This document shows positions 5,690 to 38,964 of a stretch of 64,000 bases of DNA, in pieces (within the stretch, counting starts at the first letter, position 1; each line of letters starts with the position of its first letter). The DNA lies in the IMG/VR virus record IMGVR_UViG_3300025010_000055, positions 2,970 to 66,969 of that record; one strand, 5' to 3'. The position numbers and the translations under genes are program-made. The notes under the pieces are model-generated. The model ran no database searches. It was not told the DNA's origin and worked only from the letters and a program-made list of their open reading frames with translations. The DNA is from a virus.

Positions 5690-6532
5690 GTGGTTTTTGT
5701 TATTAATATACTCGAATCGTGGCCTAGATATGAGAGAGATAAGAAATTTCTCAATTATTCGCCGCATACACTAAAGGCATATAAGATACAATGCCGACTT
5801 TTATTTTCAATGCGTTAGGTAAAAACCCCCGACTTCCAGTCGGGACAGCTTTAGCATAAATGGTTGGTGGTATAGTCCATGAAGCATCGGAAAAATCACT
5901 ACATGGTGAGTCCATGTGTTGTAGTTGGTTTTGCGGTAGAAATGCCACTAGGCTACTTATAGATGCTCGCTCTGAAATTGTGAGAAACCTCCCACTACTC
6001 GTAGAAATGCCACTAGGCTACGTATAGAGCCAAGCTTTAAAAATCTACCGATAACATACAGAGTTGCGGTTTAGTATGGTCTGCAAGTTTCAGTTGCAAG
6101 CTTAAGTCTGCTTTAGCAAGAGGACTTCCAGATGACTTTAGTCTTAATTGCGACTTCCAGTCGCTTTTCGAACCCCTGCACTTCTAGTGCAGGGTCGTTG
6201 AGTTTAATTCAAAATGTCTCTTTTGGCTTAAAAAATACGTCGAACTAAGAAACGATAATAGTCCTGCCCTATTTGTTACTGACCGCGCCCCAAGACGTAT
6301 GAGTATAGCGCGTATGAGAGAAATAATTAAGGCGGTTGCTATTCGTGCGGACATTGAAGCAAGTGTCTATCCCCACAGATTAAGACATTCTTATGCCACT
6401 CATTTATTGGACAATGGTGCCCCAATGGAGGCGATACAGCAACTTATGGGGCACGCCAAGCAGGAAACAACCCAAGTGTATGCTCAGCTTTCCGGTGAGC
6501 GCAGAAAAGAATTATATAAGAGGTATTTTTAG
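5690..6532 (+). pseudogene. XerD-like tyrosine recombinase, interrupted by a 398-bp element and lacking its central part
   Basis: N-terminal ESWPRYERDKKFLNYSPHTLKAYKIQCRL before 5805; FNSKCLFWLKKY...YPHRLRHSYATHLLDNG...LMGH...TQVY after 6202. Confidence 0.85.
5805..6202 (+). mobile_element. Non-autonomous IS200/IS605-type element (PATE/MITE-like), copy 1
   Basis: 398 bp; appears identical to the reverse complement of 38542-38939; preceded by TTTAT; subterminal hairpins CCCGACT-TCC-AGTCGGG and CCCTGCAC-TTCTA-GTGCAGGG; no terminal inverted repeats, no target duplication, no transposase. Confidence 0.8.
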
Positions 6533-17856: not shown

Positions 17857-18063
17857 ATGAAAAAAGAGTTTACTAAGATGGATTGGTTCTTTGCGGCTTG
17901 TGTTGCTATGTGTCTTTTGGCATACCTTTATAGTTGCTTAAACGGTAAACCGATAGAGCAGATCAAGGATATGATGCAGTATTTCGGCCTTGGCCTTGGG
18001 CTGGGAGCCGGTAAGGTCATATATAATAATTTGGGCAGTGTGGAGGAAAAGAAAAATGCTTAA
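17857..18063 (+). CDS. Putative holin
   Basis: 68 aa, two hydrophobic segments, charged C-terminus, overlaps the endolysin start. Confidence 0.6.
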   Translation: MKKEFTKMDWFFAACVAMCLLAYLYSCLNGKPIEQIKDMMQYFGLGLGLGAGKVIYNNLGSVEEKKNA

Positions 18064-18805
18064 AATAACCATAGACCCAGGCCACGGCGGCAGAGATCCT
18101 GGCGCAATAGGACCGACGGGAGTGCAGGAAAAAGTGATTACGCTGGCAGTAGCTAAAAAAGTGGCGGCTATTCTGCAGCCGGTTATGGAAGTTATATTGA
18201 CCCGTTATGACGACATACAGCTAAGCACAAACTTGTCGGTAGACCTCACTAAGAGAGCAGAGTTAGCTAATTTCTCTCTATCTGACGTGCTTGTATCCAT
18301 ACACTGCAATGCAGCTACAGATCCGTCCGCACATGGTACCGAAACGCATTGCTACCCAAAGTCGGTACGCGGAAAAACCCTGGCTGGGATGATTCAAGGC
18401 CGGCTGATCCCGGCACTAGCCCTAACTAATCGGGGAGTCAAGGAGTCAAATTTTGCCGTACTAAGACAAAGTCAGATGCCAGCTGCTTTAGTAGAGCTAG
18501 CTTTTATATCTAATCCTGCCGAAGAGGCGTTATTGGGCAGCGAGGAATTTCAGGACAGGGCAGCCCTGGCTATAGCTCATGGGATATGTGACTTTTTGGG
18601 GGTTACAACGCCGGTTCAGGAAATATTGCCTCCGGACGGGAAAAGACAGTCTGACGATATCAGGATATTTATTTTTGGCAAGGAAGTGCCTGGTGTTCTG
18701 ATTGGGGATCGAGCTTATGCTCCCGTTAGGGATCTGGTTGATGCCATCGGCGCTAAGGAATCGGTGACATGGGATGCAGCAACAAGGACTATTACAGTAG
18801 AATAG
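18056..18805 (+). CDS. Endolysin, N-acetylmuramoyl-L-alanine amidase (Amidase_3) with a C-terminal cell-binding domain
   Basis: IDPGHGGRDPGA, EK, VSIHCNA, ALVELAFISN zinc-amidase motifs. Confidence 0.95.
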   Translation: MLKITIDPGHGGRDPGAIGPTGVQEKVITLAVAKKVAAILQPVMEVILTRYDDIQLSTNLSVDLTKRAELANFSLSDVLVSIHCNAATDPSAHGTETHCYPKSVRGKTLAGMIQGRLIPALALTNRGVKESNFAVLRQSQMPAALVELAFISNPAEEALLGSEEFQDRAALAIAHGICDFLGVTTPVQEILPPDGKRQSDDIRIFIFGKEVPGVLIGDRAYAPVRDLVDAIGAKESVTWDAATRTITVE

Positions 18806-18848
18806 TTCACTCCAAACCTGGTAAAAATAACATACGCGAATTAACTTA

Positions 18849-18899
18849 GCCTCGGAACTATCCGGAAATACCGGACGGTTGCCGGGGCTTTTTTATTTT
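18849..18899 (+). terminator. Terminator of the late operon
   Basis: Long GC hairpin GCCTCGG..TCCGG-AAATA-CCGGA..CCGGGGC followed by a T-run. Confidence 0.75.
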
Positions 18900-18954
18900 C
18901 CGCAGATAATGTATAATAGATGTAGCGCAAATTTGACAACGTGGGGGAACAAAA

Positions 18955-19131
18955 ATGGCAAAGAAAGACGCCGAAATAAGGGGGCGAATCTCGAAAAGAC
19001 TCAAAGAAAGGTTCGTGGCAGCACTCGAAAACGACGGCCTGACTGAATCAGACTGGATTATTGCCAACGTGGTCAGGTACGTAGAAGGGAGGGAGGGAAA
19101 GAAATTCTGGAAAATAAAACGCAAATTCTAA
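18955..19131 (+). CDS. Ribbon-helix-helix-like regulator heading the type IV operon (not in ORF track)
   Basis: MAKKDAEIRGRISKRLKERFVAALENDGLTESDWIIANVVRYVE: beta-alpha-alpha pattern; RBS GGGGG. Confidence 0.65.
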   Translation: MAKKDAEIRGRISKRLKERFVAALENDGLTESDWIIANVVRYVEGREGKKFWKIKRKF

Positions 19132-19817
19132 CGCCAACACAGCTAATTAGACAAGCTGCACTCAAAACCCCAGCTGTGCCCGTGGCTATGGGTAAAACCA
19201 TAGAGTATGCCGATGTGCCACTAGAAACCGTATCAGATCAAAGGTGCTGGCTATGTGGAGGTAAAACGGGGGGACAAGGACAGTCCATCAAGAAAGCTAT
19301 CAAGCCTACCTTTACTGACAGAGACAAGGCCCGCGTACCGCACAGCAATTCTATTTGCCCTGGTTGTGCTTTCTGCTTGTCATATTCACCGCTTAGGAAT
19401 TACAGCATTTTGGCGACGTTGGACGGCCTGAGACACCCTACAAGGCCGGAAGTCAAAGAATTGCTACTAGACCCACCAGAACCGCCTTTTGTGCTATGTA
19501 TTGCAGTGTCAGGGCAGAAGTGGCTACATTTCCGCTCGAAGGTTGCGTATTCAAGGGATGGGTTCCCGGCGCAGTTGGAGGAAACGCCGATATGTGTAGA
19601 GAGGACACTGCTCCGAGAATGGCTAGAAGCTATTGAACACCTTTATACCGTCTTTACCAAGGAGGAAATAAAGACAGGACACTACAGCCAGAACCGGATC
19701 AAGACTTTTGGCCTGTCAGAATTCCAGTTAGTTGACGGGAAAATATCGGGGGTGAGAGGGACAAGGCTTTTTGATTTAGCCGTCTTTGTTGCTCAGAAAA
19801 GAGAGGAGGAAAAATAG
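19107..19817 (+). CDS. csf1: Type IV CRISPR large subunit Csf1 (Cas8-like); probable CTG start at 19107
   Basis: CWLCGG...FTDRD...ICPGCAFC zinc motif, PPEPPFVLCIAVSGQKWLHF; in-frame upstream extension LTPTQLIRQAA after RBS GGAGGG. Confidence 0.85.
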   Translation: MENKTQILTPTQLIRQAALKTPAVPVAMGKTIEYADVPLETVSDQRCWLCGGKTGGQGQSIKKAIKPTFTDRDKARVPHSNSICPGCAFCLSYSPLRNYSILATLDGLRHPTRPEVKELLLDPPEPPFVLCIAVSGQKWLHFRSKVAYSRDGFPAQLEETPICVERTLLREWLEAIEHLYTVFTKEEIKTGHYSQNRIKTFGLSEFQLVDGKISGVRGTRLFDLAVFVAQKREEEK

Positions 19818-20284
19818 TGCATTACAATTTTGACACGACGGATGAGAACGCCGCCACTGCTGCCTTGATGGTGTACGCCGTTTATCGTAGCAGGGACGTT
19901 AAACGGTTTAAAATCAACCCGGAAATGTGGACAAGAATTGAAAACGCCGTGAAATCAGCTGCAAAGCGCGCCGGGGATCTTGGAGATTTCATTGAAAAAT
20001 TGAAACCAAAGCTGCAGTGCGGAACTATTCACCCGCGATGGGCAAAAACAATTCCCGATGGCATGGTAAGTATGCGTGTAATGCCGGACGGATCGGTTAT
20101 CGAAGTGGCAGACAGCGGAAAGAGGCAGTTCCTTACGGACGTTTTGAATGAAGTAGACCACAAAGCGGTTCTAGATCATCTATATCGAAAAACTGCAATT
20201 ACCGTACTATTAGTCAGAGATAGGCAAGAAAGAGAAAAACCTATTGAAGTAAAATTAGGGGAGGATTTTATAAATGTCGAATAG
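19817..20284 (+). CDS. cas11: Type IV small subunit (Cas11-like)
   Basis: 155 aa helical protein between csf1 and csf2; MWTRIENAVKSAA...FIEKLKPKL...LLVRDRQEREK. Confidence 0.7.
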   Translation: MHYNFDTTDENAATAALMVYAVYRSRDVKRFKINPEMWTRIENAVKSAAKRAGDLGDFIEKLKPKLQCGTIHPRWAKTIPDGMVSMRVMPDGSVIEVADSGKRQFLTDVLNEVDHKAVLDHLYRKTAITVLLVRDRQEREKPIEVKLGEDFINVE

Positions 20285-21257
20285 TATTAGATTAGACGGA
20301 AAAATCACATTATTGTCTCCTTTATCCCATATAGGTGAGTCGAGCGGAATTGACAGTTTTTTGTCAACAGATACCGTTATTGGCATGGATGGCAGACCTC
20401 TGGAAGTATTTACCTATAGCGGCAACGCTTTTCGTGGTCAACTCAGGGATCTTGGTGCCTCATATCTCACGGAAAAACTAGGGAATATTAAGTACAGCCC
20501 GGAGCTGTTTTACCTGCTGTTTTCTGGTGGTTCGCTTGGTGGTGCTCAGTCGGTGGACATTGACCAGGCCCGTATGTATCGCAGAAACATTCCGCTGTTA
20601 TCCGTGTTTGGCGGTGGCGTAGGAAATCAGATCCTAACTGGGAAAATAAAAGTTGGGGCTATGTACCCGCTCACGGAAGAATGTCAAAGGATCATCCCGG
20701 AACACCTCAGAGACGAAAATGCGCCAAGCTGGAAGCAATGGACGTTCGACAAGAGCTTTACCCGTATGGACGATGCGAAGAACGAGAATATGAGAAAATA
20801 CCTAACAGGTAGCGAAACAGACGGACTTGCTATAGCCGGACAAGTTGAAGCCGACAGCAAGAAAAAGAAGAAGGAAGATCCCCCGCAGCAAATGCGTTAC
20901 ACGGTGGAAATGCTGGCTGCCGGTGCGGTGATGTATCAGCGGATTGATTTATGCGATTTGTCCGATTTGGAGCTTGGAGCTTTTGTGTCAGCATTAACAA
21001 AATTGTCAGAACATGCCTATATTGGGGGAAAATCAGGTACGGGTCATGGACTTGTAGATATAGAATATACATGGAGAAAAGCCGGTCAAAAAGATTCGGA
21101 AGGTACTTTTTTGAAGATTTCCTCTGACTGTTTGTGGCTGTCGGAACCAGCGGAAGAAGCCAAGAAAACCTATGATCAGTTTTTGGTTGCGTTATACGAT
21201 CGTTATTTGGAGGACAACGCTCCTGAACTGACCAAGTTGTTGACTGGGGGAAAATAA
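20274..21257 (+). CDS. csf2: Type IV backbone protein Csf2 (Cas7 family)
   Basis: ITLLSPLSH, YSGNAFRGQLRD, LFSGGSL, PLLSVFGG, FTRMDD, IGGKSGTGHG RAMP motifs. Confidence 0.92.
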   Translation: MSNSIRLDGKITLLSPLSHIGESSGIDSFLSTDTVIGMDGRPLEVFTYSGNAFRGQLRDLGASYLTEKLGNIKYSPELFYLLFSGGSLGGAQSVDIDQARMYRRNIPLLSVFGGGVGNQILTGKIKVGAMYPLTEECQRIIPEHLRDENAPSWKQWTFDKSFTRMDDAKNENMRKYLTGSETDGLAIAGQVEADSKKKKKEDPPQQMRYTVEMLAAGAVMYQRIDLCDLSDLELGAFVSALTKLSEHAYIGGKSGTGHGLVDIEYTWRKAGQKDSEGTFLKISSDCLWLSEPAEEAKKTYDQFLVALYDRYLEDNAPELTKLLTGGK

Positions 21258-21947
21258 ATGCAGCCTTTGAAAATTACTGCAGTTTTGCAAGACGGCAGAA
21301 TAGCGGGAGTAGATCCATATTTTCCTTTAGATTCCATCATGGCAGCCGAATGGATGCGGAGAAACCATCCTGAAGCATATTACAATGCCAGTAGTCACCT
21401 GTTGACCAATGACATGATCATACCGGATCTGCCGCTGGAGCGTATTGGAGGCGGTGAGGATTGGTACTTTGCTTGTAGCTTCAATACGATCCCGCCAATC
21501 TCTGAATATGTCATGCACTGGCACAAGAGGTTTGACGATCAGCTTGAGCAGCATATCGACTTTGCGGGTAAGCGGGGCAAGGTGGACATTAAATCAGGCA
21601 AAAACAAGGCATACAGGATGCCTTTGGTGGTGCAGTTATTCGATAGGCTAGAATGGTTTGCTGTGGGTGATTTAGAGGCAGTACAGGATTTAGTCTTAGG
21701 CATTACCCACTTAGGAAAGAAAAGTAGCCAGGGGCTTGGAGCGGTAAATTATTGGACTGTTGAGGAATGGCCGGAGGATTGGAGCTTTGTCAGGGACGGT
21801 AAGCTGACCAGGGCCATACCGATCGGTCATGGATTTCCCGTTGGAGTGCAGGTAGCAAAGATGGCTTTGTACGGCATCAGGTCGCCTTACTGGCACACAG
21901 AAAATCAGATGGTTTGCATGATGCCGGAGGTGTTGCAACGTGATTAA
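21258..21947 (+). CDS. csf3: Type IV Csf3 (Cas5 family)
   Basis: PLKITAVL, PLDSIMAA, LPLE, SGKNKAYRMP, LGKKSSQGLGAV G-loop, R.PYW. Confidence 0.88.
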   Translation: MQPLKITAVLQDGRIAGVDPYFPLDSIMAAEWMRRNHPEAYYNASSHLLTNDMIIPDLPLERIGGGEDWYFACSFNTIPPISEYVMHWHKRFDDQLEQHIDFAGKRGKVDIKSGKNKAYRMPLVVQLFDRLEWFAVGDLEAVQDLVLGITHLGKKSSQGLGAVNYWTVEEWPEDWSFVRDGKLTRAIPIGHGFPVGVQVAKMALYGIRSPYWHTENQMVCMMPEVLQRD

Positions 21948-22593
21948 AATAGCTTTGCCCGTCGAATTTAACGACGGCAAACAACTGCATGACGCTACCT
22001 TAAAGCTTATAAGCATGGTATCACCGGCAATAGCAAAAATTATTCACTCAGATCATAATTATAAGCCATTTAGCGTACAATTGCCGAACATTGTTAATAT
22101 CCTTGATCCCGCTTTGGAATCTGTCGCTAATAGTTTTACAAACGTCAAGATACTAAAGCAGTTAAGTTTTGCGGAGTGCTTCGGCGGGGAGCCGGACAAG
22201 TTTCTCAATCTTATATTTAGCCGAACGCTTTTCAGGCATCCAGGTGCAAGCTATCCACTGCCGGATCCGTGGAATGTTATTACCTCTTGGAAAAATCGCT
22301 GGAATAGCATTTCACCCATAAAAGTAACCATTTCCTTACCGATAGCACAAGATCGTAAAAGTGCTCGGGTAGAAATACAGTATATGAAGATTGACACGGC
22401 TAAGATTCAAATTGCAGATTATCGGCCGGTTATTACTTTTAGTGGTCCTGTAAAAATAAAATGGCTCGGTGACGAAAAGGAGCTTCGAGAGCTTTGCGCT
22501 CTGGCCAAATTTGCAGAGTTTGCGGGAACTGGTTCAAAGACTACAATGGGGTGCGGGGTGACTAGCATTGCAGGATTGGCGGGAACTATATAG
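21940..22593 (+). CDS. cas6: Cas6-family endoribonuclease
   Basis: KPFS, PLPDPWNVITSWKNRWN, C-terminal G-rich loop FAEFAGTGSKTTMGCG. Confidence 0.85.
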   Translation: MIKIALPVEFNDGKQLHDATLKLISMVSPAIAKIIHSDHNYKPFSVQLPNIVNILDPALESVANSFTNVKILKQLSFAECFGGEPDKFLNLIFSRTLFRHPGASYPLPDPWNVITSWKNRWNSISPIKVTISLPIAQDRKSARVEIQYMKIDTAKIQIADYRPVITFSGPVKIKWLGDEKELRELCALAKFAEFAGTGSKTTMGCGVTSIAGLAGTI

Positions 22594-23335
22594 ACTGCAC
22601 GCAAAACTGCCAGCGTTCAGGAAACGGCTAGAAAAAACAAAAGCTATCATTTCCGAAGCGTTGCAGTCTATTTCAAAGCCCTACGTTGCAGTCTCCTTTG
22701 GGAAAGACTCTATTGTTCTGACACATCTACTTATTCAGCAGAAAAAAGATATTCCGATAGTCTGGTCAGACCGTGGCCCGGAAGCTGAACTGCCGGAAAC
22801 TTACCCGTACATAGAAAAAATAAAAGCTATGCACGGGATAAACCTGCAGGTTATTTATCCGTCAATGTCGATGTTTGAAATATACAGAAGGTACGGACTG
22901 CCTGAGATAGACGATGGAGTTACAAGGTCTATCGTGAAAGAGGTAAATCTTGTCCTTGCTTTCGCTGAATATGTTCGGATAAACGACATTGACGGGTATT
23001 TTCAAGGACTCAGAGCCGAGGAGAGCAACGGCCGGAGATGGTACGCCAAGAAATACGGACATATCCACTACAGAAAAAGGGACAATCTGATTGTCTGCAA
23101 CCCACTCCTGCACTGGTCAGCAAGGGACATTTGGGGGTATATTGTTAGTCATGACATACCCCACCATCCCGAATATGACAACGAAAGATTTAAAAACCGT
23201 GAAATGATACGGCTGAGCAATTGGAGCGGTCTATATTGGGCGCAAAACGGCAGGATGGCAGAGCTAAGATACTACCATCCTGAGCTTTATCGGCAGTTAG
23301 TTAATGAATTTCCGGAGGTAAAAACATTTGTATAA
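22568..23335 (+). CDS. cysH: PAPS-reductase/CysH-like PP-loop protein
   Basis: YVAVSFGKDS PP-loop, GLRAEESNGR, NPLLHWSARDIWGYI..HDIPHHPEYD. Confidence 0.85.
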   Translation: MQDWRELYRLHAKLPAFRKRLEKTKAIISEALQSISKPYVAVSFGKDSIVLTHLLIQQKKDIPIVWSDRGPEAELPETYPYIEKIKAMHGINLQVIYPSMSMFEIYRRYGLPEIDDGVTRSIVKEVNLVLAFAEYVRINDIDGYFQGLRAEESNGRRWYAKKYGHIHYRKRDNLIVCNPLLHWSARDIWGYIVSHDIPHHPEYDNERFKNREMIRLSNWSGLYWAQNGRMAELRYYHPELYRQLVNEFPEVKTFV

Positions 23336-24257
23336 TTTTTTGTACGGCAATCTAAGGCTAGGGAACTTCCAAAAAGGGATCACGTTGGCCGCGTCCTGGG
23401 CATGGGGAGTTTCTATTATAGTAGGGATGCAAATATTCCAGACAAAGGGTATTGAGTCGTTTGCGATTTGGGCAGCGGCAAACTCCCTTACTTTAGCACT
23501 GTTGGGATGGATATTTACAAAGGTACCTGCAGAAGTGTCAATGCTGTCGGAGCTTATGCCTGCATGGGGCATACCAATATATTCAGCACTCACTTATGCT
23601 ATTCAGTTTTTTTCTGTGCTGGTGAACATAACGGCAATAAAAACAGCGTTTAAGATGCTTGGTTTTGTGGATTATTGGCCCGTGTTCGTTGCCCTGGTAT
23701 TTGCTGGTGTCTTTCTGTGGGGTTTTAGTCATGCGGTTAAGGGGAATATAGTCAAATACTCTTTATGGATGGCTTTGCTTTTATATGTTTTGTGGGTGCC
23801 AGCGCAGGTTAGGCTTATCCAATCAACTACTGCTGACATAAATTTTGCACTGTACGGGGCTTTGATCCTGTTTTGTGCTCCAGTCCTTGATCAGCAGATG
23901 TGGCAACGTAGGAAGGCTTTTGGCGCTGGGATAAAGCCTTTCCTGTGGGCTAGTGGACTGTTTGCGCTTTACATGGTTATGGTAGGTCTGGCAGCTGCTG
24001 TTGGTGTCGGTGGTTATACTGTATCTTTGGTGATACTTCTGGTGGCCGGATCTACTCTGGCAAGTGCCTTGTCTGCTATATCTTGCTATCACAAAACAAA
24101 AAATAGTGCCAGGGTGGGTATGGTGTTAGTATTTTTTTTGGCTGCAACTTGCACTATTTTTAACCTGTCAGTCATTCAAATTTGGGTACTATACGGATCC
24201 CTGAGAATACCGTTTGCTTTGTTTGCTTTCTATAGAATACTTTCCAGGAAGTCTTAG
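23328..24257 (+). CDS. Multi-pass membrane protein resembling a shortened sodium:solute symporter
   Basis: About 10 hydrophobic segments; ITLAASWAWG and LDQQMWQR resemble SSS TM and DQxxxQR motifs; overlaps the cysH stop. Confidence 0.6.
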   Translation: MYNFLYGNLRLGNFQKGITLAASWAWGVSIIVGMQIFQTKGIESFAIWAAANSLTLALLGWIFTKVPAEVSMLSELMPAWGIPIYSALTYAIQFFSVLVNITAIKTAFKMLGFVDYWPVFVALVFAGVFLWGFSHAVKGNIVKYSLWMALLLYVLWVPAQVRLIQSTTADINFALYGALILFCAPVLDQQMWQRRKAFGAGIKPFLWASGLFALYMVMVGLAAAVGVGGYTVSLVILLVAGSTLASALSAISCYHKTKNSARVGMVLVFFLAATCTIFNLSVIQIWVLYGSLRIPFALFAFYRILSRKS

Positions 24258-24286
24258 CCTCCATCTACGGAGGCTTTTTTATTTTT
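24256..24286 (+). terminator. Terminator closing the type IV operon
   Basis: AGCCTCC-ATCTAC-GGAGGCT followed by a T-run. Confidence 0.85.
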
Positions 24287-24382
24287 CAGATTGTCAAATA
24301 TATTTTCAAAAGAATTTTCACGGAAAGCCTGAAAGCCTTGATTTTGCTAGGTTTTTTATTTTTAAAAACTATTGAAAAAGAG

Positions 24383-24411
24383 TTGACACGATTTCGAGAC
24401 TGTGGTAATAT
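24383..24411 (+). promoter_or_regulatory. Strong sigmaA promoter, cassette 1
   Basis: TTGACA-17 bp-TAATAT with extended TG and an A/T-rich UP element. Confidence 0.8.
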
Positions 24412-24476
24412 GTATTCAACGGAACGATAGCAGGACAGAAAATAAACGGCCACAGAGCCGAGAGGAGATAAATATT

Positions 24477-24983
24477 ATGACAAAGAAAATCAATTGGGTA
24501 GAAATTTTAGAGCAGAACGAAGAGGCCATTTTGGAGGCAGGACGCCAGGCTTACAGAAACTCTTGCCTAAGCAGTTACGACAACAGCTTCAGCAGCACGG
24601 AAGACGTTGTTATCGACAAGGACGGGGGCATCCGCACAGAGACACAACAGCAGAACTGGCAGAGCATGGACACCTACCACGGCAACGCGATTTGTGTTAT
24701 CAGCTTCAAGAGGTTTTATGTTTGGGAGAACGTGGAAGAAGAAACCGAGATTAAAACTATGTTGGAACCTTCTGAGCTAGAAGAATTCCAAGCCTACCTA
24801 GACGAGAACGAGATAACAAGTTGGGGTATAAGTACAGTACGCGATTGGAATTCAGCTATTGCCGATAGACTTGACAGCGAAATGGGGCAATACGATTATG
24901 ATGCGTATGTCGAGGAGCAGGTTGCTAGTCAGTACGAGCAATGCCTTGAGCGCACCAAAGCCGAAGCTGAATTTTCCGAATAG
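24477..24983 (+). CDS. Very acidic hypothetical protein
   Basis: ATG at 24477 after GAGGAG; D/E-rich; first gene behind the strong promoter. Confidence 0.7.
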   Translation: MTKKINWVEILEQNEEAILEAGRQAYRNSCLSSYDNSFSSTEDVVIDKDGGIRTETQQQNWQSMDTYHGNAICVISFKRFYVWENVEEETEIKTMLEPSELEEFQAYLDENEITSWGISTVRDWNSAIADRLDSEMGQYDYDAYVEEQVASQYEQCLERTKAEAEFSE

Positions 24984-28086: not shown

Positions 28087-28653
28087 TTGAGAAAACCAAT
28101 CATGATCAACACCTCAACCCTGCATTTTCGCCTGTTAGACCTGCAGCAACTGGGTGCCAAAAGCGCCCACCTTGTCGGGTCTGTGACAAAAGGCACTTCT
28201 ACCGAAAAGTCTGACTTAGATATCTTTGTTGTCACCGGGGGCAGTCGCATTGATGACAAATATCTGATGTCGCGTCCGGTTACGGAGTACGAGGGCAAAA
28301 AACTACCCATTGCACGTTCTGACGAAAGAAATTATTTTAACCTGCCATTCCAGCGCGGTTTGGTCAAGAAAGGATGGATAAGTATGTCAGATACAACTTG
28401 CCCGGAGTGTGGAGCCAAACTTCACACTCCTAACCCACTCGAAGAAGTTTTAATCCTGTCAGAAGCTGCGGCAATGTACGGCTTTGCTGATTCTGGAAGT
28501 TTGCGCAAAATAATAATGCGTGGACTCCAGAACCCGGAGAAAAGCAAGTTCAGGCCGGAGGAAATCAGGAAGTCAGAGCCGGGTGGAAACTGGAAAATAC
28601 TCAAATCCGCCATGGACAGAGTTTATCCTGATCGTCTAATCAAAAATACTTAA
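28087..28653 (+). CDS. Minimal nucleotidyltransferase domain in frame with a CxxC and HTH domain
   Basis: LVGSVTKGTSTEKSDLDIFV (GS...DxD); EVLILSEAAAMYG...WKILKSAMDRVY HTH. Confidence 0.65.
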   Translation: MRKPIMINTSTLHFRLLDLQQLGAKSAHLVGSVTKGTSTEKSDLDIFVVTGGSRIDDKYLMSRPVTEYEGKKLPIARSDERNYFNLPFQRGLVKKGWISMSDTTCPECGAKLHTPNPLEEVLILSEAAAMYGFADSGSLRKIIMRGLQNPEKSKFRPEEIRKSEPGGNWKILKSAMDRVYPDRLIKNT

Positions 28654-28702
28654 AAAGCTGTGCTAAAACTAGCATGGCTAATTGCTTTAGGGGGAATCGG
28701 TA

Positions 28703-30100
28703 TTGGTAACAATGCACATCGTAACGCATTTAGAGCGTTACTGCAAAAGATGCAAGAAAAATATCTCCGTGAGGGTGCAAGATTACGGAGAATGTAGTTG
28801 GGAGGAGATGGACGAAAAGCTAGACAAAAGCTTGTATCAGGTTACTAAATCTAAGTGTTCTGGATGTGGGGTCGAGGAGTGGCCTGAGCATATAGTTATG
28901 TACGACATATCCGGCAAGAAAATGCAAGAGATAGTCAAAAAGAAAATAGGATCGGAAGATATGCCAGTTGTTGGTGTTGGCGATGCCCCGTATGCTGTTT
29001 CGCGTTCTCCAGAAGAGGAGTCCGAGTATAATCGCGGTCTGGCGAAGGCTAAGGAAAATTATCTAGAGAAAGCAGAAGAATTCTGGCATGGGTACAATGC
29101 TTTTGCGCTGGAAAAGTGGGCAAGTTTGCTTAAGGATCTGACTGACAAGGAATTTGCTTTTGCTTATGCACAGCTTGGTTTGCCGTTGCCGTCTAGTTCA
29201 GCAGTTATTAGCGTTGCCGCATGGCGAAAGGATGCGGAGAAGTTGCTTAGGACGGAAGAACAACAGTTAGCCTTTTGGCGGGAGGCTAACCGATATATTG
29301 CCGAGGAAGAGTTTATTTGGTCACCTATCGACCAATGGCCCATGGAAGAGTGGATCAAAATGTATGGCCGGGAGCGGGTAACTTACTTAACTCTAAATGT
29401 GCCACTGCCGGAGGAATTGGAAACCTACAGAACTAAAGCACTGGCCAAGGTCATCAAAAAGAGATCCGGTGAGACCGGTGTGCTGTTCATGCGGATCGGG
29501 CAGTTGGGTAAGGAGCTGGACAAACAGCGTAATCGGTCGATGGAGCTATCACGACAACTGCAGCAGGAGAGGCAGGATAGTTCGGCTTTAACTATTCAGG
29601 TCGTGAAATTGAAGCAGGAGATCGCGTCTTTGCGTAATAAACCTGCAGAAGTTATCCGGGATCCTGGCGATGCAAGGAAAATTAAATCCCTTAAGGGGTT
29701 AGTTGTAGAGCTGCGTGCTGAGGTAGAGAGGCTTGCAGGGTTATTGCCGGTTAAAGTTATAATCCAAGAACCAGATTATATAATAGAAGAAACTAAAATT
29801 GAAGTCCAGGAACCTGTCATTAATCTGATCGGCAAGACAGTCCTTATCGTTGGTTGGCCAAGGGAAGCCGTAGATGCTGAATGTCGGATACTATGGCATG
29901 ACGGTGACAGTGTTGATGTGCAGCTGAAGACCCTGACCACGGAGGCAGATATATTTGTTGTGCTAACTCGTTTCATTAGTCATCAGGCCATGTGGTGGTT
30001 GAAGGCGGAAGCGGTAGAGCAGGACAAGAAGATCCTTTTCGTCAGGGAAACCAACGCCGATCGTATTTTGGACATTGCGAGATCATATCTAGCCAGGTGA
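28703..30100 (+). CDS. Zn-ribbon, coiled-coil and C-terminal DUF2325-like domain protein
   Basis: CKRC/CSGC; GKTVLIVG...ADIFVVLTRFISHQAMW. Confidence 0.65.
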   Translation: MVTMHIVTHLERYCKRCKKNISVRVQDYGECSWEEMDEKLDKSLYQVTKSKCSGCGVEEWPEHIVMYDISGKKMQEIVKKKIGSEDMPVVGVGDAPYAVSRSPEEESEYNRGLAKAKENYLEKAEEFWHGYNAFALEKWASLLKDLTDKEFAFAYAQLGLPLPSSSAVISVAAWRKDAEKLLRTEEQQLAFWREANRYIAEEEFIWSPIDQWPMEEWIKMYGRERVTYLTLNVPLPEELETYRTKALAKVIKKRSGETGVLFMRIGQLGKELDKQRNRSMELSRQLQQERQDSSALTIQVVKLKQEIASLRNKPAEVIRDPGDARKIKSLKGLVVELRAEVERLAGLLPVKVIIQEPDYIIEETKIEVQEPVINLIGKTVLIVGWPREAVDAECRILWHDGDSVDVQLKTLTTEADIFVVLTRFISHQAMWWLKAEAVEQDKKILFVRETNADRILDIARSYLAR

Positions 30101-33685: not shown

Positions 33686-33741
33686 GAGTAACGCATTAAC
33701 GAAGTTAAGAGTAACGCATTAACGAAGTTAAGAGTAACGCA
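33686..33741. repeat. Tandem 23-bp repeat GAGTAACGCATTAACGAAGTTAA x2.4
   Basis: Read directly: 33686-33708, 33709-33731, partial 33732-33741. Confidence 0.95.
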
Positions 33742-38497: not shown

Positions 38498-38541
38498 TTA
38501 AAATCAGACTTGGCCGTGCGCGTTGCTCGGTCAAGTGAAAA

Positions 38542-38939
38542 CTCAACGACCCTGCACTAGAAGTGCAGGGGTTCGAAAAGCGACTGGAAGTCGCAATTAA
38601 GACTAAAGTCATCTGGAAGTCCTCTTGCTAAAGCAGACTTAAGCTTGCAACTGAAACTTGCAGACCATACTAAACCGCAACTCTGTATGTTATCGGTAGA
38701 TTTTTAAAGCTTGGCTCTATACGTAGCCTAGTGGCATTTCTACGAGTAGTGGGAGGTTTCTCACAATTTCAGAGCGAGCATCTATAAGTAGCCTAGTGGC
38801 ATTTCTACCGCAAAACCAACTACAACACATGGACTCACCATGTAGTGATTTTTCCGATGCTTCATGGACTATACCACCAACCATTTATGCTAAAGCTGTC
38901 CCGACTGGAAGTCGGGGGTTTTTACCTAACGCATTGAAA
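38542..38939 (-). mobile_element. Non-autonomous IS200/IS605-type element, copy 2 (inverted relative to copy 1)
   Basis: Reverse complement of 5805-6202; flanked by ATAAA (TTTAT on the - strand) at 38940-38944. Confidence 0.8.
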
Positions 38940-38964
38940 ATAAAAATTATGGAGGCCAAAACAC

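Follow-up and report, generated by a model that had tools for sequence, protein, structure and literature searches.

Positions 2970-66969 of the virus record IMGVR_UViG_3300025010_000055, a linear virus of 66,969 nucleotides (nt) that is estimated to be 83% complete, were analysed as a single window of 64,000 nt, in which nearly all genes are found on the plus strand. One locus in this window contains the complete type IV-B gene set of a CRISPR system, namely csf1, csf2 and csf3 together with a cas11-like and a cysH-like gene. The last of these encodes a PP-loop enzyme of the PAPS (3'-phosphoadenosine 5'-phosphosulfate) reductase fold and overlaps a gene for a membrane protein, the family of which is referred to here as F0. 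A predicted structure and profile comparisons place this protein in the sodium:solute symporter (SSS) lineage, as a divergent branch of minimal size. The open reading frames (ORFs) and signals of the locus are as follows (aa, amino acids; TM, transmembrane).

17990-18805: Amidase_3 endolysin gene, directly before the IV-B unit (Pfam scan)
18955..19131, plus strand: small basic ORF of 58 aa, the first of the unit (ORF list)
19176..19817, plus strand: csf1, type IV large subunit, Cas8-like (PADLOC typeIV_Cas8, 5.1e-36; NCBIfam cas8u_csf1, 2e-18, below cut-off)
19817..20284, plus strand: cas11, type IV small subunit (PADLOC typeIV_Cas11, 9.6e-44)
20274..21257, plus strand: csf2 (Cas7) (PADLOC typeIV_Cas7, 2.1e-69; PHROG 22746, 2.2e-52)
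21258..21947, plus strand: csf3 (Cas5) (PADLOC typeIV_Cas5, 2.1e-48; NCBIfam cas5_csf3, 1.4e-15)
21940..22593, plus strand: cas6-like gene, not a usual component of IV-B (Pfam CRISPR_Cas6, 2.4e-12, above cut-off; PADLOC Cas6d/Cas6, 1.7e-13)
22568..23335, plus strand: IV-B CysH-like PP-loop protein of 255 aa, with the PAPS-reductase fold and without the redox cysteine (Pfam PAPS_reduct, 8.9e-23)
23328..24257, plus strand: F0 gene for a predicted 10-TM, SSS-derived (LeuT-fold) membrane protein of 309 aa (AlphaFold2, Foldseek, VIA-align, hhalign)
24256..24285, plus strand: intrinsic terminator closing the unit (hairpin at 24256-24275 plus a T-run; 7-bp stem with five GC pairs)

From csf1 on, neighbouring genes of the unit abut or overlap. 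The cysH-like ORF and the membrane gene, which both begin with TTG, overlap by 8 nt, with the cysH stop codon at 23333-35 and the membrane start at 23328; ahead of the latter lies GGAGG (23314-18), at a spacing of 9 nt. Since homologues span residues 1-307 or more of the membrane protein, the limits of its ORF are supported. In a terminator scan of positions 18500-24700, the strongest terminator-like hairpin was that directly 3' of the membrane gene, and a promoter-like site was found downstream of it, at 24383-24411. Upstream of the unit, a T-run behind short GC palindromes (about 18862-18899) and TGTATAAT (18910-17) were recognized by eye; neither was called by the terminator and promoter scan of the same region. 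As such, the overlap and the shared, terminator-bounded unit that a preliminary description of this DNA had reported were both recovered, the downstream boundary by a strong terminator and the upstream one by signals seen by eye. The 58-aa basic ORF at the head of the unit, for which no PHROGs or PADLOC match was found, is possibly a regulator, a guess from its position.

The CysH-like protein contains the motifs SFGKDS (residues 43-48) and GLRAEES (residues 147-153) and, as had been noted earlier, is missing the C-terminal redox motif of PAPS reductases: its sole cysteine is C177, with none after it. The position of C177 is the only conserved cysteine among seven aligned cas-linked CysH proteins. 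Scores against the NCBIfam models for CysH and for PAPS and APS (adenosine 5'-phosphosulfate) reductases all fell far below cut-off (79.1 bits vs 154; 71.2 vs 165; 57 vs 254). When a 34-sequence profile of cas-linked CysH proteins was compared with the Protein Data Bank (PDB), the PAPS reductases 6vpu (2.9e-25) and 1sur and the CysD structure 1zun (6.7e-23) were matched, as were APS reductase, FAD synthase, TtuA and GMP synthase. The AlphaFold2 model of the window protein, with a predicted local distance difference test score (pLDDT) of 95.1, was superposed by Foldseek on PAPS reductases 6vpu, 1sur and 2o8v with a template modelling score (TMq) of 0.62-0.65 over roughly the first 200 residues, at about 24% identity. 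The protein therefore has the fold and the nucleotide-binding motifs of an assimilatory CysH but neither its catalytic cysteine motif nor an equivalog-level score.

In the PADLOC comparison, the CysH-like protein matched BrxP (1.8e-16) and SspD (3.2e-6), with no match to DndC. The PAPS-reductase fold is indeed common to this protein and to DndC, SspD and BrxP of DNA phosphorothioation. The operon differs, however, in that no cysteine desulfurase, DndD/E or other Dnd, Ssp or BREX partner was found among its ORFs in the ORF list or by Pfam and PADLOC. Likewise, according to PMC8175902, the cysteine residues for sulfur transfer found in these enzymes are absent from the IV-B protein termed 'CasCysH'. 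The missing catalytic cysteine and the PP-loop-like motif were already described there for CasCysH, which has been proposed to AMPylate substrates or to produce second messengers (PMC8175902; PMC13676074). Its function is still called unclear in a 2026 paper (PMC13676074), and CasCysH also appears without an assigned function in passages of bioRxiv 780106, bioRxiv 270033, PMC11656645 and PMC12669027.

The membrane protein was modelled with AlphaFold2 from a 44-sequence F0 alignment (A1), which also served for the profile and hhalign comparisons. The resulting model (pLDDT 94.8; predicted template modelling score 0.92) has exactly 10 TM helices, with interruptions in TM1 (residues 24-27) and TM6 (residues 183-189) and the 5+5 inverted repeat of the LeuT type. 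Foldseek returned 17 PDB matches at an expectation value (E) ≤0.001, all 17 being entries for secondary transporters, namely SLC5/SSS proteins (CHT1, SiaT, NIS), amino-acid carriers of the APC type (AdiC, ApcT, LAT1) and CodB, a carrier of cytosine; the top match was CHT1 (8j74_A; TMq 0.77). In a VIA-align comparison with PDB representatives, CHT1 (Z 26.0; 294 residues, root-mean-square deviation 3.4) and SiaT (Z 25.9; 302 residues, 3.1) were followed by SMCT1 (Z 23.6), DUR3 (23.3), LeuT (23.2) and SGLT1 (21.9). All 44 chains with Z≥8 adopt the LeuT fold, with the next fold appearing at Z 7.9. Identity to solved SSS members is 11-15%.

Comparable evidence was obtained at the sequence level. 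A search of 1.84 billion proteins with the A1 profile yielded 436 representative clusters at E≤1e-3, and when 44 longer, distant matches were scanned, Pfam SSF was detected at E≤0.01 in 11, of which the best reached 73.6 bits and seven passed the gathering score. Upon alignment of A1 with one such SSF-positive protein (P0171) by hhalign, a probability of 99.0 and an E of 2.3e-18 were obtained over 305 columns, with the TM1, TM6 and TM8 motifs in register. In an ESM Atlas feature search, viral 'putative transporter' clusters scored 0.96 and an SSF-bearing cluster 0.93. The earlier assignment of an SSS-like protein of about 10 TM helices was thus borne out by a 10-helix LeuT fold and by remote homology to Pfam SSF proteins, the fold recovered by Foldseek and by VIA-align being that of a LeuT/SSS transporter. 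Like the SSS/SLC5 family (PF00474, TC 2.A.21; CHT1, SiaT, SMCT1, DUR3, SGLT, PutP/PanF), F0 adopts the 5+5 arrangement of LeuT, in which the TM1 and TM6 helices are broken (Z 23-26 over some 295-302 residues). Unlike typical SSS members, which comprise 13-15 TM helices, F0 consists of the 10-helix core only, in 309 aa.

F0 is almost confined to uncultivated phages and prophages, with one bacterial isolate, Clostridium lapidicellarium MT-113 (locus L060), also containing it; a tblastn search with the window protein (E≤1e-3) revealed no match in 50,697 GenBank phage records or 72,556 plasmids. In one relative of 483 aa (P0116), a transporter-like domain (residues 181-473) is preceded by an N-terminal N6_Mtase fragment (Pfam, 2.3e-6), which may be a true fusion or an artefact of gene calling. 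At another locus (L007), an N6_Mtase gene lies three genes upstream of the transporter.

Across 91 distinct F0 sequences, Q193, W286 and R293 are invariant, while T243, W24, W26, N52, W192 and Q190 are nearly so. S242 is present in 85 and T243 in 90 of these 91 sequences, and the pair is aligned with an S-S-T-I-D-S stretch of the SSF-positive relative. This Ser/Thr pair is a candidate Na+ (Na2) site, SSS proteins being known to bind Na+ at such a pair in TM8. Overall, the conservation pattern fits a working binding site in F0. Other positions vary. D245 of TM8 is present in 81/91 sequences and is replaced by alanine in the window copy; nine of the ten copies in which it is absent are IV-B-linked, the tenth being found on a one-gene contig (L144), and the residue is retained in part of the IV-B-linked set, for example in L024/L025 and L135. 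In TM6, D188 and R194 are replaced by Cys/Ser and Met, respectively, in copies from a clostridial ligase cluster. Charged positions in what would be the binding-site helices of the LeuT fold thus appear to vary with the class of the neighbouring enzyme, as would be expected if the substrate of the carrier were tied to the chemistry of the enzyme.

To describe the genomic surroundings of F0, 138 loci (38 viral, 27 genomic and 73 metagenomic) were fetched with the family profile. Twenty-five with fragmentary F0 genes were dropped, leaving 113 in which the F0 copy is intact (≥250 aa). Neighbouring ORFs were called and clustered, cluster representatives were labelled by Pfam and PHROGs, and all neighbours were then classed using hidden Markov models (HMMs) of those clusters. 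In 66/113 loci, a PP-loop enzyme is encoded within two genes of F0 on either side. The classes found at this distance were as follows.

IV-B-type CysH: 19/113 loci, always directly adjacent to F0
Phage PAPS-reductase module: 36/113 loci
AsnB-like or other PP-loop protein: 11/113 loci
Clostridial chromosomal ligase cluster: 20/113 loci
None of these classes: 27/113 loci

Because the collections overlap and many phages are related, transporter clusters were counted as well. At 60% identity, F0 falls into 31 clusters, with 11 being linked to IV-B CysH, eight to phage PAPS reductases, six to AsnB-like proteins and one to the ligase cluster, while five have no such partner. PP-loop motifs were detected in 37/467 ORFs within four genes of F0 (F0 ORFs included), as compared to 4/517 ORFs elsewhere in the same loci, corresponding to an odds ratio of 11 (Fisher p 6e-9), with the loci not being independent of each other. 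Where CysH precedes F0, the two genes overlap by 8 nt in 7/12 pairs; junctions are mostly overlaps, some of which are inflated by longest-ORF calling. The preliminary description had taken the pairing at this locus as meaningful. In agreement, IV-B-type CysH adjoins F0 in two gene orders and once inside the effector genes, and relatives of F0 adjoin other PP-loop enzymes in loci without cas genes too. Tight packing of F0 against its partner genes recurs for three kinds of PAPS-reductase-fold enzymes and for an AsnB-like PP-loop enzyme.

In the typical phage module, F0 is followed by a PAPS reductase of 270 aa (present in some cases), a ParB-like protein, a 364-aa PAPS reductase (in some cases with DUF3440), a second ParB-like protein and the terminase. 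These PAPS-reductase and ParB-like pairs, presumably IbrA-like and IbrB-like, contain enzymes of the same superfamily as IV-B CysH. They differ in being found without cas genes and in the enzymes being of 355-447 aa, with SGGKDS and often DUF3440. For DUF3440, no paper on function was found among the matches listed. The AsnB-like partner contains an invariant WSGGVDST motif and gave weak Pfam matches to Asn_synthase, QueC and PP-loop families, together with structural matches to Asn_synthase clusters in the Atlas (TM 0.62-0.64); its length of 370 aa suggests that a glutaminase domain may be absent.

Two of these arrangements were seen repeatedly. In gut-type phages (L004, L006-L008, L010, L013, L014, L016, L017, L038 and others), a five-gene module of F0, PAPS-reductase and ParB-like genes lies between an HNH endonuclease gene and that of the large terminase, within the packaging region. 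In Clostridia bins (L045, L046, L049-L052, L054, L055, L058, L061, L147, L148, L152, L153, L155, L156, L159, L162, L163, L165 and L187), genes for an LD-carboxypeptidase, F0, one or two HisRS-like proteins, a PanC-like protein and a PurD-like protein follow one another, resembling a ligase pathway with its own carrier.

The relation between F0 and the IV-B enzymes was addressed with trees built using MAFFT and FastTree. In the F0 tree, rooted at its midpoint, IV-B-linked copies are found on one side of the root and other contexts on the opposite side, with the exception of L064, which groups with the IV-B-linked copies; in that locus, F0 adjoins a 579-aa protein with an SGGLDS PP-loop motif at residue 247, AsnB-like by motif and length only. 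In a tree of 56 CysH sequences, the transporter-linked CysH proteins form one clade, which also contains one unlinked member (L071) and one case at a contig end (L121). Two subclades of this clade match the two gene orders, i.e., CysH before F0 and F0 before CysH. In L123 and L124, where F0 lies between two cysH genes, one CysH belongs to each subclade. In the isolate L060, csf1, csf2, the transporter gene, cysH and csf3 lie in a row. Pairwise distances of CysH and F0 are correlated (Mantel r 0.65, a value reached in 0/5000 permutations; 16 distinct pairs, with F0 p-distances of up to 0.78), which shows long co-inheritance without proving functional coupling. As a separate observation, L040 and L123/L124 are IV-B loci with a second csf1-csf3 pair, and the cysH genes that flank F0 in L123/L124 are divergent.

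The reading that best accounts for these observations, and one that is on balance probable, is that F0 is a Na+-coupled importer feeding the PP-loop enzyme. F0 would be a stripped-down SSS member, reduced to the 10-helix core, whose gene is transcribed together with that of the IV-B CysH-like enzyme and coupled to it in translation, and it would import a small solute, probably together with Na+; transport, its direction and the use of Na+ are all predictions. The imported solute would be needed by the PP-loop enzyme either as the target of adenylation or, once an adenylated intermediate has formed, as the nucleophile resolving it. Selection of the target may come from the Csf1/Cas11/Csf2/Csf3 complex, possibly with CRISPR RNA processed by Cas6 from two mini-arrays of the same genome (see below). 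The partners of F0, namely PAPS-reductase-fold, AsnB-like, HisRS-like, PanC-like and PurD-like proteins, all cleave ATP to yield adenylated or phosphorylated acyl intermediates, and most of them form a bond between an amine and a carboxylate or carbonyl. This chemistry leads us to lean towards an amine- or amino-acid-like solute, which is a guess. Together, the findings suggest that the IV-B CysH-like enzyme of the F0-bearing subset works on an imported small molecule.

Attachment of the product to nucleic acid, as envisaged in the preliminary description, is possible and draws no support from any computation made here. A wider conjecture is that phages employ an 'import-and-ligate' module, in which a Na+-coupled carrier takes up a specific exogenous amine- or amino-acid-like metabolite and PP-loop enzymes such as IV-B CysH, IbrA-like PAPS reductases of phages and AsnB-like synthetases join it to DNA or RNA through an adenylated intermediate, with the IV-B version being RNA-guided by the Csf-crRNA complex and dependent on a compound of the medium; we regard this as speculative and unlikely to hold in full. 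A complex prediction for the transporter and CysH (alignments A1 and A3) scored 0.00 against a mark of 0.32, was run without controls and is uninformative on binding. A 7-deazaguanine or queuosine precursor, considered as cargo in light of the weak QueC-like matches, was dropped because no other family of the queuosine/7-deazaguanine pathway was found in the Pfam and PHROG scans of neighbours, which did not include a targeted search.

Several observations weigh against an importer that serves the enzyme. The window protein gave no Pfam or NCBIfam match at E≤0.01 and none in PHROGs or PADLOC, its homology to the SSS family being through SSF-positive intermediates, and the F0 family profile found no match among PDB sequences at E≤10. 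When CysH was taken as the starting point of the search, 50 viral loci were recovered; csf genes were present in 28, and the transporter in only three of these 28 (contigs L001, L002 and L025). This implies that most IV-B CysH enzymes work without F0 and that F0 is an accessory of one IV-B branch and not a general component. The proposal that the pairing offers a clue to the role of IV-B CysH therefore stands directly for one sub-lineage, corresponding to one CysH clade. Given that the IV-B association comes from this single clade, it may reflect one acquisition, and the Mantel correlation would likewise arise if the two genes had simply been inherited together within the same phages. Among the loci counted are contigs that are related or identical, drawn from collections that overlap, and the neighbour classes rest on cluster-built HMMs, with only the representatives having been checked against Pfam or PHROGs. 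No partner class is found within two genes in 27/113 loci and within five genes in 18/113, several of these ending at contig edges. Finally, in many phages the F0 gene lies between lysis and packaging genes, where unrelated accessory genes also gather.

These points bear most directly on the alternative that F0 and the enzymes are co-located without a functional link, F0 being an independent accessory ('moron') gene in an insertion-tolerant region shared with PAPS-reductase, ParB and IV-B modules. Many loci do place F0 between endolysin or HNH genes and the terminase, or by an integrase and a holin; a partner enzyme is missing within two genes in 27/113 loci, and 25/28 viral IV-B loci are without F0. 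Chance neighbourhood is nonetheless rather improbable, as the adjacency recurs with four families of PP-loop enzymes on both sides of the F0 tree, the genes overlap by 4-11 nt, the L060 pair is inserted between csf2 and csf3, inside the csf genes, and F0 and CysH have diversified in parallel to an identity as low as about 25%. Were the pair functionally linked, F0 could instead be a membrane effector or sensor, with CysH making an adenylated signal or marking a target and the LeuT-fold protein responding, for example by altering membrane permeability, in parallel to the membrane effectors of type III CRISPR signalling. The AMPylation and second-messenger proposals for CasCysH (PMC8175902; PMC13676074) are in line with such a role, and membrane proteins linked to CRISPR systems are a theme already recognized (bioRxiv 270033). 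We consider it quite unlikely, since the conserved residues of F0 are those of a transport core (TM1, TM6, TM8, TM10), the AlphaFold2 model has no extra cytoplasmic ligand-binding domain within its 309 aa, the family is also found in cas-free phage modules and in the chromosomal ligase cluster, and an effector with self-harming action would be hard to reconcile with a phage late operon.

Two further alternatives retain transport but change its direction or purpose. F0 may act as an exporter or exchanger that removes the product of the enzyme or a toxic by-product, or that secretes what the neighbouring ligases produce. The clostridial cluster is laid out like a small biosynthetic cluster, in which transporters often export, and the structural matches include antiporters of the LeuT fold, for example AdiC. 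Still, the nearest relatives in structure and sequence are Na+-coupled SSS importers and the TM8 Ser/Thr pair, where SSS proteins presumably bind Na+, is conserved, making export about as doubtful as the effector role. Least likely of all, and by our estimate very improbable, is an ordinary nutrient-uptake auxiliary gene that, with a CysH of sulfate assimilation, boosts the sulfur or amino-acid supply of the host. PHROGs does class the enzyme as an 'auxiliary metabolic gene' PAPS reductase, and PAPS reductase and CysD are its closest solved relatives. However, the C-terminal catalytic cysteine is absent, the enzyme scores far below every NCBIfam cysH cut-off and it belongs to the cas-linked CysH clade, inside a csf operon. 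SSS proteins are not known to serve as sulfate carriers.

If F0 is indeed an importer for the PP-loop enzyme, the carrier offers an experimental handle, as its substrates can be screened and a match would name a candidate co-substrate for an orphan enzyme. With the same carrier family being found beside the widespread phage PAPS-reductase/ParB modules and the AsnB-like enzyme, one result could inform several phage gene sets, and the isolate L060 makes genetics possible. The fold, the family and the features of IV-B CysH were already known, the membrane partner being new: no mention of a dedicated SSS-type carrier in IV-B operons, or of F0-family proteins paired with phage PP-loop enzymes, was found in the parts of the literature searched, a search that did not extend to the locus tables supplementing bioRxiv 780106 and bioRxiv 270033, in which such neighbours might be listed.

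The window operon resembles described type IV-B loci with CasCysH, such as that of Mycobacterium sp. JS623 (PMC8175902), in containing csf1, cas11, csf2, csf3 and a cysH gene for a PP-loop protein without the catalytic cysteine. It differs in that a cas6-like gene and the transporter gene are added, and in that two mini-arrays are present in the genome. Type IV-B systems are typically without Cas6 and without a CRISPR array, with rare exceptions (bioRxiv 780106), and the window genome departs from this pattern on both counts. A phmmer search revealed a cas6-like homologue in 6/28 viral IV-B loci (L066, L067, L069, L070, L073 and L074), and a virus-borne IV-B mini-array has been reported (PMC10848311). 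In the window, a perfect 407-nt inverted repeat, with arms at 5799-6205 and 38539-38945 that are 32.3 kb apart, brackets the segment containing the IV-B operon, and each arm contains one mini-array.

5936..6028, plus strand: CRISPR-like mini-array of two repeats of about 28 nt (65 nt from start to start) and one 37-nt spacer
38716..38808, minus strand: second, identical mini-array in the other arm of the inverted repeat

The mini-array is a candidate substrate for the Cas6-like protein, and we infer a link to the IV-B operon. For the inverted repeat with its mini-arrays, candidate explanations are an invertible segment, an effect of assembly and duplication of guide loci. For the spacer, no other match was found in the window at ≤3 mismatches and none in phages, with a single weak match to a plasmid (E 0.4). 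The 21-nt core of the repeat is absent from four related virus records, and the predicted RNA fold of the repeat is no better than that of shuffled sequences (z -0.33).

Elsewhere in the window, a perfect 23-nt tandem duplication was observed at 33686-33731. In the region at 28087-30100, a nucleotidyltransferase and HTH_59 protein (28087-28653) is followed by a protein of 465 aa with a C-terminal DUF2325-like region that scores just under the Pfam cut-off.

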